This document shows positions 14,340 to 50,946 of a stretch of 64,000 nt of DNA, piece by piece. This stretch comes from a virus. The position numbers and the translations under genes are program-made. The DNA lies in IMG/VR virus record IMGVR_UViG_3300046453_000063, positions 99,995 through 163,994 of that record. One strand, given 5' to 3'. Below the pieces are notes generated by a model. The model saw only the letters and a list, made by a program, of their open reading frames with translations, was not told the origin of the DNA and did not search any database. Position 1 is the first letter of the stretch; every line of letters begins with the position of its first letter.

Positions 14340-14520
14340 TAGCAATCTCTCTCTGTGTTTATAATATAACATGATAATATTGCATAGTCAACATATATTT
14401 ATTAATTAAATTTACCAAACAACACATGAAGAGGGTTCTATGTTGCTTCATTATATATAACAAAAAAGATGAAGAATTTAATGAATAAATATATACATAA
14501 ACATAATAATGTGATATGAT
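14340..14520. promoter_or_regulatory. Divergent promoter region (yonO operon versus recombinase operon) carrying the phage operator motif in both orientations
   Basis: CAACATATATTTATTAATTAAA (14390-14411, reverse copy overlapping TTGACT) and TTTAATGAATAAATATA (14477-14493). Confidence 0.65.
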
Positions 14521-42439: not shown

Positions 42440-42685
42440 GTTTTGTCTTTTTATGAAAATTTTGATTTTTGGAATTTATCCTGTTTAAGAGTGAAAGTAT
42501 AAGGTTAATACAAAATAAGAGAGACATTAGTCACGTAATACATATTCCCAGCAGCAATGCAGTACTTTTCAATTTTCAGAGAATGTCAACACCAAAACAC
42601 ACTATTATCCTAATTTATGTAAGGAAATTTTGTGCAACAACATTTGTATTGACAAAAACAAAAACATTTGAATTTATTGACGTTT

Positions 42686-42699
42686 AGAACAAATGTTCG
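42686..42699. promoter_or_regulatory. LexA/DinR (Cheo) box upstream of the mazF-like gene
   Basis: AGAAC-AAAT-GTTCG matches the Firmicute GAAC-N4-GTTC consensus. Confidence 0.65.
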
Positions 42700-42817
42700 C
42701 TTGTGAAAATTACTATCACTAGGTATAATAAATATATAAATAGTTAATAATAAAAGTACATAGTGATAGAAAAAATAGAGTGAAGCAAGAATAATAATAA
42801 TCAGGAGTGTGGTACAT

Positions 42818-43213
42818 ATGAGCATGGTTATGGAACGCGTGGAAATGAATAAAAATATTAATGTTGCTACAACACAATATGAAGTTTGGTTGGCAGATCT
42901 ACAGGCAGACGGATCAGTACAGGGTGGTAGAAGACCAGTTGTTATTCTATCTAATAATCTTCAAAATAAATTCTCTCCAACAGTGATGGTAGCTCCAACA
43001 ACCGGAAGTAAAACAAAAAGACCTCTTCCGACACATGTAGATTTAATCGCTTCGGAAATTGGATTTGTAAAAGATAGTGTATTGCTTTGTGAACAAACAA
43101 CATCGATTAATAAACACCGACTCATTAAAAAATTAATTGATCTCCCATATGAATATCAAAGTAAAATTGCTGAAGCAATTAGAGTTGCATTTGCAGAAAT
43201 TAAAGTTTACTAA
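42818..43213 (+). CDS. mazF: PemK/MazF-family endoribonuclease, no adjacent MazE
   Basis: VWLADL...GSVQGGRRPVVILSN..QNKFSPTVMVAPTT...LPTHV...DSVLLCEQ. Confidence 0.88.
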   Translation: MSMVMERVEMNKNINVATTQYEVWLADLQADGSVQGGRRPVVILSNNLQNKFSPTVMVAPTTGSKTKRPLPTHVDLIASEIGFVKDSVLLCEQTTSINKHRLIKKLIDLPYEYQSKIAEAIRVAFAEIKVY

Positions 43214-43220
43214 TAAATAT

Positions 43221-43253
43221 AAAAAGAAGAGGTTTTTATACCTCTTCTTTTTT
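43221..43253. terminator. Bidirectional terminator between convergent mazF and xre genes
   Basis: AAAAAGAAGAGGT...ACCTCTTCTTTTT. Confidence 0.7.
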
Positions 43254-43466
43254 AGAGTCATCTTTGTGATATTTAAACAAATCAATAATATCAATATCTA
43301 ACTCATCGCATATTGAGACAATATTCTTTAGAGGAATTTGTTTGGCTGTATTATTGCACATCTCATTGATAGTTGAATGCCTTATGTTTGTACGTCTAGA
43401 AAGTTCTCTTTTTGTAATTCCTTTGCTGTCAAGTATGTATTGTAACCTTATCTCAACCCACGACAT
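43236..43466 (-). CDS. XRE/Cro-C1 HTH regulator
   Basis: GITKRELSRRTNIRHSTINEMCNN...ICDELDIDIIDLF. Confidence 0.88.
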   Translation of the reverse strand: MSWVEIRLQYILDSKGITKRELSRRTNIRHSTINEMCNNTAKQIPLKNIVSICDELDIDIIDLFKYHKDDSKKEEV

Positions 43467-46015: not shown

Positions 46016-47347
46016 TTGAAAAAAGACAGAGATCAGCTTGAAACATTAATTGCGGACACAATTGCAGAAGTTAAAGTTGATCGGAAAAAAGTGTTGAAAG
46101 TTAATAATTTCCTCTCTGAATCAGGAGTATCATTAGGAACATTTGATGAGATATCAAAGGGAGATAAACAATTATCAACACTTGAATCATCAATGTTATG
46201 TGTTTTATCCGACGCTCTGTATGAATTAACTGGCAATGGTAATCTTAAACCTGACCAATGGTTTACCACTAAAGAAATAAACTATGCAAAAAAAGAATTA
46301 ATGAACAATACAGAAACCAATAGAATAATGTTACCCATAGCATTAGAAAATGTTGAAATGGTAAATATTGATAACTATATTACAAAAATTAAAATGTCTG
46401 ATTTAGTTCAGTGGTTTCACTCCCAACTTATTATTTATGACTTTGATACTCAAAGAAGCGCAAAATTTAAAACTGGTAAGAATGGGGTTGTACCAGTTCC
46501 AGACATCAATCTAAAAAGTGTTAAAGACATTGCAGAAAACATGCTAAACGGTACATACCTGGAAGATATGATTACGCTAAACATCTACTCTGATGAAGCT
46601 GAAGCGGTTGATTACAACTCTAAGTCACGACTATTGACAATCAACGAGCAGGCAGCCATATCAATACTTGATGGCTTTCACCGTCTTCAGGGCGGTGTGA
46701 GAGCTTGCGCTATCAATCCAGAATTAGAGCAGATGATGATACTATCAATACGGTCTTACGATACAGATACGGCAAAGAAATACTTTGGACAAATCAATAC
46801 AATCAATGTTGTTAAAAAGGAACGGCTTAAAGAATTGAAATCACAAGAGTTCTCTGATCTGGTCGTTAAAGATCTTCAGCAAAAAACAGACCTTAAAGGC
46901 AAAATTGCTTCTGCATCAAGAATCAGTGAATTGGCTGGACAATTGACCACCTTTGACATCCTATCCTATGCTATTGATAATGTCTATAAACCCAAAAGCA
47001 GACTCGATGCAATGGAAATGTCTGAAACACTCACTAAGTTTTTTAATTATCTAGCAGGAAGTTATGTTGATGAGTTTATTACAAATCCTAACAAATATAG
47101 GGATGAGAACATTAATCATTCTCTTATGTTCGTGGGATATGTTGTAATTGCTAAACACTTTGAAGACAACCAAATTCCGTATAAAGAAATAAAGAGTTTC
47201 ATCGAAAGCAAAATAAATTTTCAAGATAAGAAGTTAATCGAGCTTTTGAATAATAAGCGTGGAATCAATAACACAAAAGTAAGAAACGATGTAATTAAAT
47301 ACTTTGAGCGGCTGATAGGAATAGGAGTGGATCAAGATGTCCAATAA
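46016..47347 (+). CDS. YopQ/SroE-like DndB/ParB-superfamily (DGQHR-type) protein
   Basis: QR motif (DTQR), ILDGFHR, FGQINT; directly upstream of the yopR-like gene as in SPbeta. Confidence 0.78.
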   Translation: MKKDRDQLETLIADTIAEVKVDRKKVLKVNNFLSESGVSLGTFDEISKGDKQLSTLESSMLCVLSDALYELTGNGNLKPDQWFTTKEINYAKKELMNNTETNRIMLPIALENVEMVNIDNYITKIKMSDLVQWFHSQLIIYDFDTQRSAKFKTGKNGVVPVPDINLKSVKDIAENMLNGTYLEDMITLNIYSDEAEAVDYNSKSRLLTINEQAAISILDGFHRLQGGVRACAINPELEQMMILSIRSYDTDTAKKYFGQINTINVVKKERLKELKSQEFSDLVVKDLQQKTDLKGKIASASRISELAGQLTTFDILSYAIDNVYKPKSRLDAMEMSETLTKFFNYLAGSYVDEFITNPNKYRDENINHSLMFVGYVVIAKHFEDNQIPYKEIKSFIESKINFQDKKLIELLNNKRGINNTKVRNDVIKYFERLIGIGVDQDVQ

Positions 47348-48332
47348 AATATATGAAGATGGATTTTTTAATGAATCTCACAAAGAAATGTATCTTAAAG
47401 ATCTAAGTGAAAAAACTTACACGTCCTATGCCAGAGTTTTAAAAAGAGCACGATATGTAGAAGAACAATTAGGTAAAGACCTATATAACTTTAATGTGTC
47501 TGAGATAGAACAACTACTTAAATTTATGGCTCCTGGGTCTTATTCGGTAAGCAGCGGCAACATCAATGTAATTAGATATTATATTCGATGGGCGATACAA
47601 CAAGACTTAAGAGTTGATAATATTAATCCATTAGATTCAGTAATTAGCGATGAGTTTATAAACAAGTTTATTGACACAACAAACAAGAAATTGTTTACCG
47701 AAGAAGAAATAAACAATATTATTGGTGGATTACAAAGTTTTCAAGATGCTGCAATTATACAATGTTTATTTGAAGGGATAATGGGGCATGAGTATTCGGA
47801 AATTTTAAACATACTTAAAGATGATATAGATAGAGACAGCACTAAATTAGAGGTGAGAAATTCTCCATCATCTGGACCAATGGAGAGAAGAGTGGCAGAA
47901 GTGAGTCCAAAACTAATGAATTTATTATATAGCGCAGCAAATGAGAAAGAGTACCTGAAGTTTAATGGGATGAGCAATTCCAAAGCTCAGAGAATTGAAT
48001 TAATCGAAAATGAGTATGTATTTAGATCGGTTAAGCTCAGAGTTGTTAATTATGAAAGAGCCAGTAATCATTTGGTTCTAAGAAGAATAAAGAGCATTAG
48101 GGAATGGTATGGATACCCACATCTAACAGCAACGGGTATAAAAAACTCTGGTATGCTTAAGATGGCTAGAGATCTTTATGTGGTAAATAAGACTTTAACC
48201 CGAGATGATATAGTTAAGATTTGTAGGCGTTTTGGGGCCAATGAAATTGCTACAACAAGACTAACGAAAGACTTTTTAAATGTAGATACAATCAGGTCGC
48301 TTTATCCAGAAATAGATGAAGAACAAGCCTAA
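47337..48332 (+). CDS. YopR/MrpR/SroF-like master repressor (catalytically degenerate tyrosine-recombinase fold)
   Basis: EEQLGKDLYNFN..EI, YIRWA, LFEGIMG..YSEI (no catalytic Arg), IKNSGM (no HxxR). Confidence 0.82.
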   Translation: MSNKIYEDGFFNESHKEMYLKDLSEKTYTSYARVLKRARYVEEQLGKDLYNFNVSEIEQLLKFMAPGSYSVSSGNINVIRYYIRWAIQQDLRVDNINPLDSVISDEFINKFIDTTNKKLFTEEEINNIIGGLQSFQDAAIIQCLFEGIMGHEYSEILNILKDDIDRDSTKLEVRNSPSSGPMERRVAEVSPKLMNLLYSAANEKEYLKFNGMSNSKAQRIELIENEYVFRSVKLRVVNYERASNHLVLRRIKSIREWYGYPHLTATGIKNSGMLKMARDLYVVNKTLTRDDIVKICRRFGANEIATTRLTKDFLNVDTIRSLYPEIDEEQA

Positions 48333-48352
48333 AAACTTGTTCTTCTTTTTTT
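48321..48352 (+). terminator. Intrinsic terminator after repressor gene
   Basis: GAACAAG...CTTGTTC followed by a T-tract. Confidence 0.6.
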
Positions 48353-48364
48353 GTTTAAAAGTGT

Positions 48365-48427
48365 TGACTTTGGATTTTACGCATGATATATTGAGTACAT
48401 AAGAAATACATATATTTATTAATTAAA
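48365..48427 (+). promoter_or_regulatory. Promoter of the agr-like operon with a reverse copy of the phage operator motif
   Basis: TTGACT(48364-48369)...TGATATATT; CATATATTTATTAATTAAA at about 48409-48427. Confidence 0.6.
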
Positions 48428-48456
48428 ACAACATCATAAAAGGAGACAAGAGGAAG

Positions 48457-49113
48457 ATGTTAGATGCGATAATTTATGTGGGGTTTTCAGCATTTGAAAC
48501 ATTTTGCGTTTTATACATTATTTTAGCCATTGCTAGATTGCAAATAAAGGATTATTTAAAAGAAATGATTTTTGGAATTATTGTGATTTCTGTGAGTTCA
48601 TATCTGTTCAAAGAAGTAGGGGTTCTAAATAATATTACTCCTATGTTAAATCTAATATTAATTTTATTAATCCTTGTCTTTGTATTTAAAATATCCTTAA
48701 AGCACTCCATGATTGTCGTAGTTATTGGATACATAATAGCACTAATCATTCAAGGAATTATTCTTTATACTCCAATTGTATTGTCTAGTGTTACTTTTAA
48801 AGAAATTAAAGGTAACGACATTACCAGATATACATTTCAAACTATCTCAGCAATAACAATTTTCTTAATTGGTTTACAGCTAAAGAGAAAAAACATCGGA
48901 TTTGTATTCGTACCATATGCGCCTTCTCTAAAATTCAAATTAACAAAGAACAACTTAAATATCCTCTACCTTTTAGGAGCAACTTTAATTATAACCGGAT
49001 CAATTCTTGAAATCGGAAAAATGTATATAGGAATATTCTTATTGATAGTATTATTCAACTTTGCCTTGTTTATGGGGCTAAGAAGAGAAAGAGGAGATAT
49101 AAAGTTTGATTGA
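48457..49113 (+). CDS. Multi-pass membrane protein resembling an AgrC sensor domain with no kinase domain
   Basis: About 7 hydrophobic helices, 218 aa, no HisKA/HATPase; overlaps agrB start. Confidence 0.65.
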   Translation: MLDAIIYVGFSAFETFCVLYIILAIARLQIKDYLKEMIFGIIVISVSSYLFKEVGVLNNITPMLNLILILLILVFVFKISLKHSMIVVVIGYIIALIIQGIILYTPIVLSSVTFKEIKGNDITRYTFQTISAITIFLIGLQLKRKNIGFVFVPYAPSLKFKLTKNNLNILYLLGATLIITGSILEIGKMYIGIFLLIVLFNFALFMGLRRERGDIKFD

Positions 49114-49633
49114 TAAATTTTCTTTAAAAGCCGCCAAGAGTCTTGCCACATATGACAGAATGCCAGAAATTGATGTAATGAAGTATTCAATTAAGATTAT
49201 TTTTACAAATGGATTTACGCTCTTGCTTATGGTTGCTTGTGGATTAACTTTTGGAAACCTGGAGGATGTTTTCGCAGCAGCCATATCATTTTCTTTGTTA
49301 AGAAGTTTTTCTGGAGGATATCATATAAAAAGCTCAGAAATGTGCATCATTATATCTACCTTAATTATTGTGTTGATATCAAACTATGCCTATACAATGT
49401 CTGAGTATAATACATTATTGTTTGTTATTACATTATTGTTGGTGTTATTGTTTTCTCCCGCAAAAATAAAGCATCATTCAATTTTAAAAGAAAAATATTA
49501 TATCATATTTAAAATACTATCTGTCATTATTGTTATTGTGGCTTATCTTACAAAAAATGATGTAATACAAACCTCAACTTTCGTGCAGAGTCTGACTCTA
49601 ATCCACTTGAGAGGAGGTGAGATGGATGAATAA
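49106..49633 (+). CDS. agrB: AgrB-family peptide-processing membrane protease
   Basis: LLRSFSGGYHIKSSEMC with conserved Arg, His, Cys; later FSPA motif; multiple TMs. Confidence 0.92.
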   Translation: MIDKFSLKAAKSLATYDRMPEIDVMKYSIKIIFTNGFTLLLMVACGLTFGNLEDVFAAAISFSLLRSFSGGYHIKSSEMCIIISTLIIVLISNYAYTMSEYNTLLFVITLLLVLLFSPAKIKHHSILKEKYYIIFKILSVIIVIVAYLTKNDVIQTSTFVQSLTLIHLRGGEMDE

Positions 49634-49760
49634 AATCATGAATAAAGTTGCTCCAATTATGGGAGTTATGCTATCAACCGTAGCAGTTCTGACCACTGCT
49701 AGTACAGCTAGTATCTTGTGGTTGGGCTATGAGCCAGCACCAAAAAGCTTGAGAAAGTAA
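49626..49760 (+). CDS. agrD: AgrD-like cyclic lactone autoinducing peptide precursor (44 aa, not in track)
   Basis: GGAGGTGA RBS; MNKIMNKVAPIMGVMLSTVAVLTTASTA-SILWL-GYEPAPKSLRK has an amphipathic leader, Ser core and P-K-S-L tail. Confidence 0.85.
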   Translation: MNKIMNKVAPIMGVMLSTVAVLTTASTASILWLGYEPAPKSLRK

Positions 49761-49833
49761 ATTTTAGGGCAAATCGTCTCCTCTCACAGAAAACAGTGAG
49801 AGGATGAATTGCCCACAAATGGAGGCTATTATT

Positions 49834-50223
49834 TTGGGCGATAGAATAATGGTTGTCAAAGTAGAGTTTGAACCAAAAAAGAAAGAATACATACAAGGTG
49901 ATGCTCAATGGTTAGAGGTAAAAAAAATACTTAATACAAGAGTAGAAAGAATAAAAGGCCGAGATAGAATTATAATTGATTCAAAGGATGGTTTGTTTTT
50001 CTATAATATAATGGCTGATAACTTTACTTTATTAATGTCTGAACTAAGTGGATTCGAAATAGCAGATAGGGGAGTAATCGTAAATTTAGATAATGAACTT
50101 TCGCTCGACCTTGATAAGAGAGTCATTGTATTTGAAGATTACCCTAACACTGTAGCTCCAGTTGGAGGAACTAGGCTTCCCGACATAAAGAAACTAATAA
50201 AAAAATGGGTACTAAAAAAGTAG
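49834..50223 (+). CDS. Stand-alone LytTR DNA-binding domain protein (no receiver domain)
   Basis: GFEIADRGVIVNL...VF...APVG motif; GGAGG RBS 8 nt before TTG 49834. Confidence 0.72.
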   Translation: MGDRIMVVKVEFEPKKKEYIQGDAQWLEVKKILNTRVERIKGRDRIIIDSKDGLFFYNIMADNFTLLMSELSGFEIADRGVIVNLDNELSLDLDKRVIVFEDYPNTVAPVGGTRLPDIKKLIKKWVLKK

Positions 50224-50270
50224 TACTCATTAAACAATAAATATAATTAAAATAAAATTATATGCAATCA

Positions 50271-50321
50271 TTGCAATAAGCGGTCAATGAATGTATAATC
50301 TATAAATAAGAACAGACGTTC
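50271..50321 (+). promoter_or_regulatory. Sigma-A promoter with LexA box just downstream of +1
   Basis: TTGCAA-17-TATAAT (50271-50299); GAAC-AGAC-GTTC at 50310-50321. Confidence 0.72.
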
Positions 50322-50553
50322 CTATTTTCAACATCCGACACGAACCGACAAATTATAACCTCCGAAGAAAAATATGGGAATTGTCAACACTAAAGTTGTT
50401 GCACAATTATCGTATTGAAATAGTATCACATTAGATATATGATATATTTACCACTTATGAGTGAGGGAGCCGATGTCTATTTTTCAACAAAGAAATGGTA
50501 GTAGCAGAATGAAGAGTACTGGGGAGTATTTCAAAAAAAGAGGGGATACGCAC

Positions 50554-50946
50554 ATGCAATTATCAATGATCAGAGAACTCTCGATGGCACTAAACATTGA
50601 TTCTGATGCTGCTGGGTTCTGGAATAACGTACGTTATCTATTTAAAACAGATGATGAGGTCAGGTCATTATTGCATGAGTGTACCGGGAAATCTAGAAGA
50701 GAAGTAGATAAGTATATTACTAAAGTAAGGAATGAAAAAATAAAGAAACATCGCTTTCTGTCTTTGAATGATTTCGTAAGTAGCTTTAATGCTGATAAGA
50801 TCGCTGCTCTCGAAAGGATGTTTCAGGAGCCAATTGATATTTCAAAACTATCCAAATTAACTACCAGCGACCCAACCCGCATATTCACTATACATAGCAG
50901 CCTACCACTTGCGGTGTGGTTCATGAGTTTTGTAATCTATTTGTAG
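50554..50946 (+). CDS. Hypothetical protein under putative SOS control
   Basis: AGAGGGG RBS before ATG 50554. Confidence 0.6.
   Translation: MQLSMIRELSMALNIDSDAAGFWNNVRYLFKTDDEVRSLLHECTGKSRREVDKYITKVRNEKIKKHRFLSLNDFVSSFNADKIAALERMFQEPIDISKLSKLTTSDPTRIFTIHSSLPLAVWFMSFVIYL

Follow-up and report, generated by a model that had tools for sequence, protein, structure and literature searches.

Does a group of four genes lying directly downstream of the master repressor gene of an SPbeta-like phage form a peptide signalling system, and how could such a system work with neither a sensor kinase nor a response regulator? The question is raised by a stretch of 64,000 nucleotides (the window), which is the right-hand 64 kb, positions 99,995 to 163,994, of the IMG/VR record IMGVR_UViG_3300046453_000063; this record is complete, 163,994 bp in length and bounded by direct terminal repeats (DTR). 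A preliminary description of the window, made from its letters and open reading frames (ORFs), had proposed that an Agr-like cyclic peptide acts there on a membrane protein, which in turn sequesters or releases a LytTR factor. Our analysis gives good support to the presence of a kinase-less and receiver-less Agr-like cassette with pherotype behaviour. With a probability of about one half, we further read this cassette as a self-contained, pherotype-polymorphic peptide signalling unit of SPbeta-like Paenibacillus phages, in which a kinase-less receptor would gate the LytTR protein and feed the lysogeny-induction circuit.

Genes of the cassette

Four genes are present on the plus strand, at the following positions of the window:

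48457..49113, + strand: membrane protein of 218 residues with about seven predicted helices; proposed peptide receptor and partner of the LytTR protein
49106..49633, + strand: agrB, peptide-processing membrane endopeptidase (PF04647, E value 1.3e-22, 80.5 bits against a cut-off of 23)
49626..49760, + strand: agrD-like ORF of 44 residues, overlapping the agrB stop codon and preceded by GGAGG 8 nt upstream
49804..50223 (longest ORF), + strand: divergent stand-alone LytTR-domain protein of 124-139 residues, single domain

The coordinates and identities that the preliminary description had given to all four genes are borne out by the AgrB family match, the register of the AgrD-like peptide and a profile comparison for the LytTR protein. 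The hidden Markov model searches suggested with it gave a more graded outcome: AgrB is recognised outright, the AgrD-like ORF stays below its family cut-off, and the LytTR protein is recognised through its orthologues but not on its own.

Exchange of the membrane protein, AgrB and peptide as a block

The strongest new result is a specificity block within the cassette. Comparison of the window with a related complete phage of 174.5 kb (G002, locus L004) gave high amino acid identities in the flanking genes, with 94% for the DndB-family protein and 95% for the repressor MrpR upstream and 92-93% for the next two genes. Within the cassette the identities are 60% for the membrane protein, 53% for AgrB and 73% for AgrD, with an intermediate value of 81% for the LytTR protein. 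The nucleotide sequences of the two are 90-97% identical up to the start codon of the membrane protein; precisely there the identity drops to 49-63%, and near position 50287 it is back to 88-100%. The membrane protein, AgrB and AgrD of the window are closest to those of another phage locus, L005 (78, 63 and 84%), though the backbone of L005 is more distant (82-84%), and the converse relation of cassette and backbone similarity is seen for L003 and L004. Because of this sharp breakpoint and the block-wise identities, we consider that the three genes are exchanged as a unit, like agr specificity groups and further pherotype loci. The covariation of peptide and membrane protein that had been suggested as a check is hence present and includes AgrB, and it is independent of the phage backbone.

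The exchange supports a specific functional tie between the membrane protein and the peptide, and it is equally expected of a receptor and of a protein for maturation or export. One alternative, which we consider unlikely, is that the membrane protein is a partner of AgrB in maturation, export or a second cleavage, that sensing is left to AgrC/AgrA-type systems or another factor of the host, and that the LytTR protein works on its own, for instance as a decoy or as a constitutive regulator. Covariation with AgrB and AgrD, as seen here, would be expected of a processing partner too, and MroQ is known to aid the maturation of the autoinducing peptide (AIP) in staphylococci.

The block-exchange pattern fits equally well a toxin-immunity locus, in which the peptide processed by AgrB would be a cyclic antimicrobial, with immunity or export provided by the membrane protein and regulation by the LytTR protein, making the cassette a weapon of the lysogen with diversifying selection behind the block. 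Bacteriocin loci typically have hypervariable producer/immunity blocks and LytTR regulators, and LytTR regulatory systems (LRS) control bacteriocins in Streptococcus mutans (PMC6193735). However, neither an ABC transporter nor a bacteriocin-type leader is present in the cassette, and the membrane protein resembles a sensor domain in its fold, as described below. To our knowledge, AgrD-type peptides with five-residue rings are known as signals and not as antibiotics, which also speaks against a toxin, and we regard this explanation as very improbable.

AgrB and the AgrD-like peptide

In an alignment of 36 AgrB proteins from cassettes and hosts, R66, G70-G71, H73 and C80 show little or no variation, the catalytic H73 and C80 being present in 36/36 sequences. 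Every cassette of this type has an ORF of 38-48 residues between agrB and the LytTR gene. The AgrD sequences of this type that we recovered share one register, consisting of an invariant serine, four variable residues, a proline at +6 and a leucine or methionine at +9. The AgrD-like ORF of the window lacks cysteine; its serine stands at position -5 of the predicted cleavage site, giving a predicted ring S-I-L-W-L which is followed by a proline-containing tail. The register is the same in the canonical AgrD from an agrBDCA locus of a host, with cysteine in place of this serine, and a five-residue lactone ring is therefore predicted for the cassette peptide. A five-residue lactone AIP has a precedent in Staphylococcus intermedius.

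The four ring residues seen next to the serine are ILWL, ALWL, WLWL, WMLF, WVLL, WTIL and WTLI, with VLFV, IVYI and PVYV in chromosomal copies. A few divergent cassettes, namely that of the Brevibacillus phage Abouo and the locus L018, are off the -5 serine register. Agr peptides have been reported to regulate secondary metabolites in P. polymyxa, where the AIP is of the cysteine type, ICFGLF (PMC12180512).

Membrane protein

The membrane protein matches phrog_15604 ('membrane protein', E 1.9e-12) and has no Pfam match, no DUF2154 and no match to a protease family. An exhaustive profile search collected 255 cluster representatives of its family; among the 150 matches listed, nearly all are about 205-230 residues long, one has 293 residues and none is of kinase length. 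A search for longer relatives fused to a kinase found none, which is weak evidence by the search's own statement. Only Q99 is near-invariant across the whole family, and no conserved catalytic-type motif is present; this and the missing protease match argue against a role of the protein as a maturation partner. The conserved part of the protein is its C-terminal third (residues about 145-218), as might be expected if this part faced the LytTR protein, which is the better conserved of the two.

The ESM-Atlas model of the membrane protein (pTM 0.76) has a TM-score of 0.63 over 192 residues to a cluster of histidine kinases; PF14501 is present in 17% of its members. We take this modelled resemblance to the sensor part of a kinase as a lead and not as proof of descent; it also counts against the maturation partner. 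AlphaFold2 models built on shallow alignments are of low confidence, with a pLDDT (predicted local distance difference test) of 44.4 for the membrane protein and 53.6 for the LytTR protein, and a profile search of the membrane protein family against PDB sequences returned nothing.

LytTR protein and its proposed pairing with the membrane protein

The likely start of the LytTR gene is TTG at 49834, with GGAGG 8 nt upstream, or ATG at 49849. The ORF alone gave no LytTR match in Pfam, NCBIfam or the genome search. Among its syntenic orthologues, however, 5/9 match PF04397 (best E 9e-12), and hhalign relates the clade of the window protein to these PF04397-positive orthologues with a probability of 98.4% (E 9e-15, 117 columns). 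The nearest ESM-Atlas clusters are all (30/30) stand-alone LytTR proteins of 110-126 residues (features 0.92). Judged by these comparisons, the last cassette gene encodes a divergent LytTR protein. A match of the same clade to FimH in the profile search of PDB sequences (E 1.6) was dismissed as chance.

The membrane protein and the LytTR protein stay together in decayed chromosomal cassettes: both are intact in L017 (G001:C1:2710124-2713738), L037 and L050, where AgrB is a 42-residue remnant or gone, and AgrB is split in L040 and L049. Cassettes of this kind may be 'listen-only'. Such pairs outlasting the loss of AgrB speak against a maturation partner, and a predicted interface between the two proteins, although weak, points in the same direction. 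Prediction of their complex gave a score of 0.36 (0.27, 0.43 and 0.36 in individual runs), whereas the best of three controls scored 0.00; the contact agreement between runs was at least 95% and the pLDDT of the partner at least 75. The mark used is reached by 58/80 solved complexes and 2/110 mismatched pairs; scores at or below 0.60 are found for 7/80 solved complexes and for both mismatches.

A candidate output region follows the cassette:

50271..50443, + strand: candidate output region ahead of a gene of about 130 residues without known function
50271-50299: promoter
50310-50321: LexA-like box, GAAC-N4-GTTC
50336-50350: direct repeat CGACA-N5-CGACA, followed by a GTCAAC box
50415-50443: second promoter

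This region is conserved in seven phages, which share only 20-60% identity in their proteins; the LexA-like box is kept in 6/7 and the CGACA repeat is invariant. The CGACA direct repeat is the first candidate for a LytTR site. It was also considered as a phage-wide operator, and this was rejected, as the 164-kb genome has only two copies; the other one, at genome position 69007, stands directly after a -10 box and has a third CGAC unit.

Occurrence in chromosomes and phages

The preliminary description had treated the system as a peculiarity of the phage, which it is not. Genes of the membrane protein family were found in 85/101 sampled Paenibacillus species genomes, in 1-4 copies, all of them short ORFs and never with a kinase domain. 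The order membrane protein, AgrB, LytTR on one strand is seen in 26/29 of the best Paenibacillus loci, and a membrane protein followed by a LytTR gene on the same strand in 28/29 newly fetched Paenibacillus loci and also in L016-L018. One cassette (L010) stands in a clearly non-phage neighbourhood. The cassette belongs to a large, uncharacterised bacterial family, common in Paenibacillus chromosomes, which phages have captured.

Such a distribution favours the view that the phage copy is a moron, i.e. a captured quorum cassette which alters or eavesdrops on the physiology of the lysogen (antibiotics, sporulation, competition with non-lysogens) and has no part in phage decisions. Multiple chromosomal copies and non-phage neighbourhoods would be expected in that case, the PHROGs class of the membrane protein is 'moron, auxiliary metabolic gene and host takeover', and the regulation of secondary metabolites by Agr peptides in P. 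polymyxa (PMC12180512) would provide a function. We nevertheless consider it rather unlikely, since the copies in phages constitute a single old clade, which long branches set apart from the chromosomal copies, and their slot after mrpR is always the same. The early-promoter motif of the phage in the cassette leader and the location of the Abouo cassette in a lysogeny-control region, both described below, also argue against it. Furthermore, two IMG/VR records, L053 (6103-6504) and L060 (6114-6497), have a LytTR gene directly after mrpR, without the membrane protein, AgrB or AgrD, which suggests that the LytTR gene is a member of the phage circuit.

The complete cassette after mrpR was found at seven loci (the window, L003-L005 and L007-L009), in two more prophages (L025 and L045) as well as in seven records of IMG/VR; of the latter, L051 and the locus L004 are one and the same 174.5-kb contig. 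In an eighth IMG/VR record, L061 (6135-9041), the order differs, with AgrB, membrane protein and then two LytTR-like ORFs. The nine phage copies placed on trees form one clade apart from the chromosomal copies, both for the membrane protein (support 99/98) and for AgrB (100/99). This suggests a single old capture and retention of the cassette since then, over a time in which the identity of other phage proteins dropped to about 40%.

In Abouo, an unrelated Brevibacillus phage of 45 kb, the same four genes (gp44-47) stand next to those for integrase and repressor. Abouo gp44 is of the phrog_15604 type that is also matched by the membrane protein of the window, and gp47 passes the Pfam LytTR threshold. 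Abouo was the only tblastn match of AgrB among 50,697 INPHARED phage records, in which nothing was returned by blastn of the region or by tblastn of the membrane protein, even at an E value of 10; a search for related loci with a close alignment of the membrane protein returned a single contig from viruses and none from genomes. According to Hargreaves et al. 2014 (PMC3901668), the phages Abouo, Davies and Emery have AgrB and AgrD together with membrane proteins without a HATPase domain. The kinase-less agr of Brevibacillus phages was thus partly remarked on in that study, in which the LytTR gene of Abouo was not recognised; the clade of SPbeta-like Paenibacillus phages, the chromosomal family, the serine rule and the pherotype block are new in comparison. 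This remark and the reviews repeating it are all that our literature search found on a kinase-less AgrBD-LytTR system or on a phage Agr tied to lysis-lysogeny.

Repressor region, promoter and leader

The phage is temperate, as it encodes a large serine recombinase and has close relatives integrated in Paenibacillus chromosomes. Along with this recombinase, a MrpR/YopR protein with an adjacent YopQ-like gene and a genome of more than 120 kb place it among the SPbeta-like phages; its MrpR/YopR-like protein is 32% identical to the phi3T/SPbeta homologue (tblastn). The genes and signals around the cassette are as follows:

46016..47347, + strand: yopQ/sroE-like gene of the DndB/DGQHR family (PF14072, E 5e-7; TIGR03187; phrog_5732, E 2.5e-114)
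47337..48332, + strand: mrpR/yopR-like master repressor gene, tyrosine-recombinase fold (PF22822, E 4.6e-24; PF22823, E 1.1e-13)
48318..48345, + strand: intrinsic terminator closing the mrpR transcript, a 10-bp stem followed by a T-run; kept in seven related phages
48364..48392, + strand: near-consensus cassette promoter of the sigma-A type, TTGACT-17-TATATT, with a TG-extended -10 box; -35 and -10 boxes invariant in seven phages
48409..48427, - strand: inverted full copy of the phage-wide motif (core AATAAATATA[AT]G) in the transcribed cassette leader, which is conserved in seven phages
49779..49804, + strand: GC-rich stem-loop between agrD and the LytTR gene (RNAalifold on seven phages: 9 pairs, 6 with compensatory changes)

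The cassette had been described as an operon directly downstream of the yopQ/yopR-like genes. Its position is as described, but a shared transcript is not indicated: because the promoter directly follows the mrpR terminator, the four genes form a transcription unit of their own. The start given earlier, 48365, falls inside the -35 box of this promoter.

The motif TTTAAT(A/T)AATAAATATA(A/T)G has 16 copies in the genome against 0.8 expected, and most of them abut the -35 boxes of early promoters. Ten copies are in the window, at 14392, 20288, 22342, 22976, 27460, 28106, 34005, 36949, 48409 (minus strand) and 53764, and six more are outside it. Scanned as a forward 28-mer, the leader looks unique, but it holds the inverted copy of this phage-wide motif. 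In SPbeta, MrpR binds the repeated element SPBRE at early promoters and at PaimR (PMC10516654). By analogy, the motif is likely to be the operator of the MrpR-like repressor, and the cassette may belong to the regulon of this repressor. The stem-loop between agrD and the LytTR gene is without a T-run and its 3' arm is Shine-Dalgarno-like; it may be an attenuator or a stability element and could set the ratio of the upstream genes to the LytTR gene.

Comparison with Agr, LRS and arbitrium

Like Agr of the staphylococcal type, the cassette has an AgrB with catalytic His and Cys, a short AgrD with its nucleophile five residues before the cleavage site and a proline-containing tail, a LytTR DNA-binding output, and a hypervariable block of processing enzyme, peptide and putative receptor. 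It differs from Agr in lacking both the AgrC kinase domain and a receiver on the LytTR protein, in having serine for cysteine, with a lactone predicted as in the S. intermedius AIP, and in the order receptor, AgrB, AgrD, regulator. The phage phiCDHM1 also carries agrB and agrD, but with a full AgrC kinase (PMC3901668).

The LRS HdrRM and BrsRM of S. mutans share with the cassette a stand-alone soluble LytTR protein, a membrane protein encoded in the same operon and the absence of phosphorylation (PMC6193735). The membrane protein of the cassette is however of another family, with about seven helices, the gene order is reversed, and AgrB and AgrD stand in between. We know of no signal described for the characterised LRS; in the cassette, AgrB and AgrD would provide one. 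The cassette thus lies outside canonical Agr, lacking AgrC and AgrA, and outside canonical LRS, and it plausibly works like a fusion of both.

As arbitrium (AimR-AimP-AimX) does, the cassette constitutes a phage peptide module adjoining the sro/mrpR operon of an SPbeta-like temperate phage, with a likely repressor motif at the module promoter comparable to SPBRE at PaimR. Arbitrium employs a linear hexapeptide and a cytoplasmic receptor of tetratricopeptide repeats, whereas a cyclic peptide and a membrane receptor are predicted here; arbitrium is located upstream of the sro operon and the cassette downstream of mrpR.

Proposed mechanism and points weighing against it

We infer a scheme in which AgrB, with His73 and Cys80, would cleave the 44-residue AgrD precursor, and serine in place of cysteine would lead to the release of a cyclic lactone with the ring S-ILWL. 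The co-varying seven-helix, kinase-less membrane protein would be the cognate receptor, which would hold or release the receiver-less LytTR protein by direct contact, as the membrane inhibitors of LRS do, with no phosphorelay. The likeliest output would be phage promoters, the first candidate being the downstream region with its promoters, LexA-like box and CGACA repeat. In this way the cassette would pass population information to the lysogeny-induction circuit, comparable to arbitrium beside sro/mrpR in Bacillus SPbeta phages. It is the position of the cassette and the regulatory motifs that suggest a role in lysis-lysogeny.

The architecture without kinase and receiver, on which the earlier proposal of an alternative quorum system was built, is confirmed, and the absence of a histidine kinase, response regulator and aimR noted in the window extends to the complete 163,994-bp phage. 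PF14501, PF02518 and PF00072 are absent from it, and the AimR model NF038310 matches only positions 2-49, a helix-turn-helix (HTH), of an 87-residue ORF (18.7 bits against a cut-off of 70). The model gives the same picture in the related complete phage G002, from which AimR is absent as well.

Several observations nonetheless weigh against the scheme. The AgrD-like ORF is under the cut-off of the AgrD family (TIGR04223, 12.2 bits against 19, E 0.16). The profile of the membrane protein family gave an hhalign probability of 0.6% with one host AgrC, i.e. no sequence-level homology, which is also what a maturation partner would lead one to expect; the protein could serve maturation, export or immunity and would co-vary with AgrD in these roles too. 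The modelled complex of the membrane protein and the LytTR protein passes its mark only weakly and hence lends weak support. The CGACA repeat has a period of 10 bp, compared to the period of about 21 bp that is usual at LytTR sites. The function of a cassette so common in Paenibacillus chromosomes need not concern phage decisions.

LRS are characterised by paired direct repeats of about 9 bp, 11-13 bp apart and 4-11 bp upstream of the -35 box of their operon, through which they autoactivate (PMC6193735). In this respect the earlier comparison with LRS failed: repeats with a 19-23-bp period and at least 8/9 matches are absent upstream of the promoter at 11 loci, and the terminator abuts the -35 box. 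Because these repeats are absent, autoactivation of the LRS type is unsupported.

Exclusivity of the cassette and AimR, proposed as a check, is seen in our sample, in which none of the ten viral records with the cassette (the phage of the window, G002 and eight IMG/VR records) has AimR and none of the six MrpR-bearing viral records with AimR above the cut-off has the cassette (0/10 and 0/6); however, it tracks the split between Paenibacillus and Bacillus phages and is thereby confounded by phylogeny and host and not independent. It is less likely than not that the cyclic lactone is the phage's own lysogeny-induction signal in place of arbitrium, with a kinase-less receptor gating LytTR and exchangeable pherotypes, and that the same variant is the main Agr-type channel of most Paenibacillus.

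Lastly, two agrBDCA loci of the canonical kind (L020 and L021) are found in P. tianjinensis (G001), which harbours a related prophage; they have AgrD of the cysteine type, kinases of 423-455 residues and AgrA of 247 residues. The kinases of such a host could do the sensing that the maturation-partner alternative leaves to it, and because known hosts carry canonical agrBDCA, cross-talk with the host is possible. The AgrDs of the canonical loci have cysteine whereas those of this cassette type always have serine, which argues for separate channels and against sensing by the host. Kinase-less cassettes are present three times in this genome: in the prophage, in the chromosome with a non-serine AgrD, and in a decayed form.

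Should the signalling unit work as proposed, the best-studied family of 'talking' phages would have a second, mechanistically unrelated peptide system, and the role of arbitrium could be filled by a captured bacterial module. It would also represent a third way of reading an Agr peptide, by a membrane receptor and a LytTR protein without phosphotransfer, linking Agr with the orphan LRS, and an uncharacterised quorum channel of Paenibacillus (about 85% of the sampled species, a genus of soil, rhizosphere and antibiotic producers) would become testable. Pherotypes would mean that related phages signal only to their own kind. The block provides natural specificity pairs, with a SILWL or a SALWL ring on nearly identical phage backbones.

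Further observations

A gene for a PemK/MazF-family toxin and a divergent small HTH gene are located a few kb upstream of yopQ/mrpR, at about 42677-43442 of the window, and the pair is also kept in L003 (3355-4004), L004 (406-1055) and L005 (3268-3931). The arbitrium circuit of SPbeta acts via the host MazEF.

No RNA run is among the listed sequencing runs that contain the stretch. The region 47337-50946 is almost wholly present in two rhizosphere metagenome runs from two studies, with all of the sampled words found in the first, possibly the source sample, and 87% in the other. These matches would fit a Paenibacillus host from soil or the rhizosphere.

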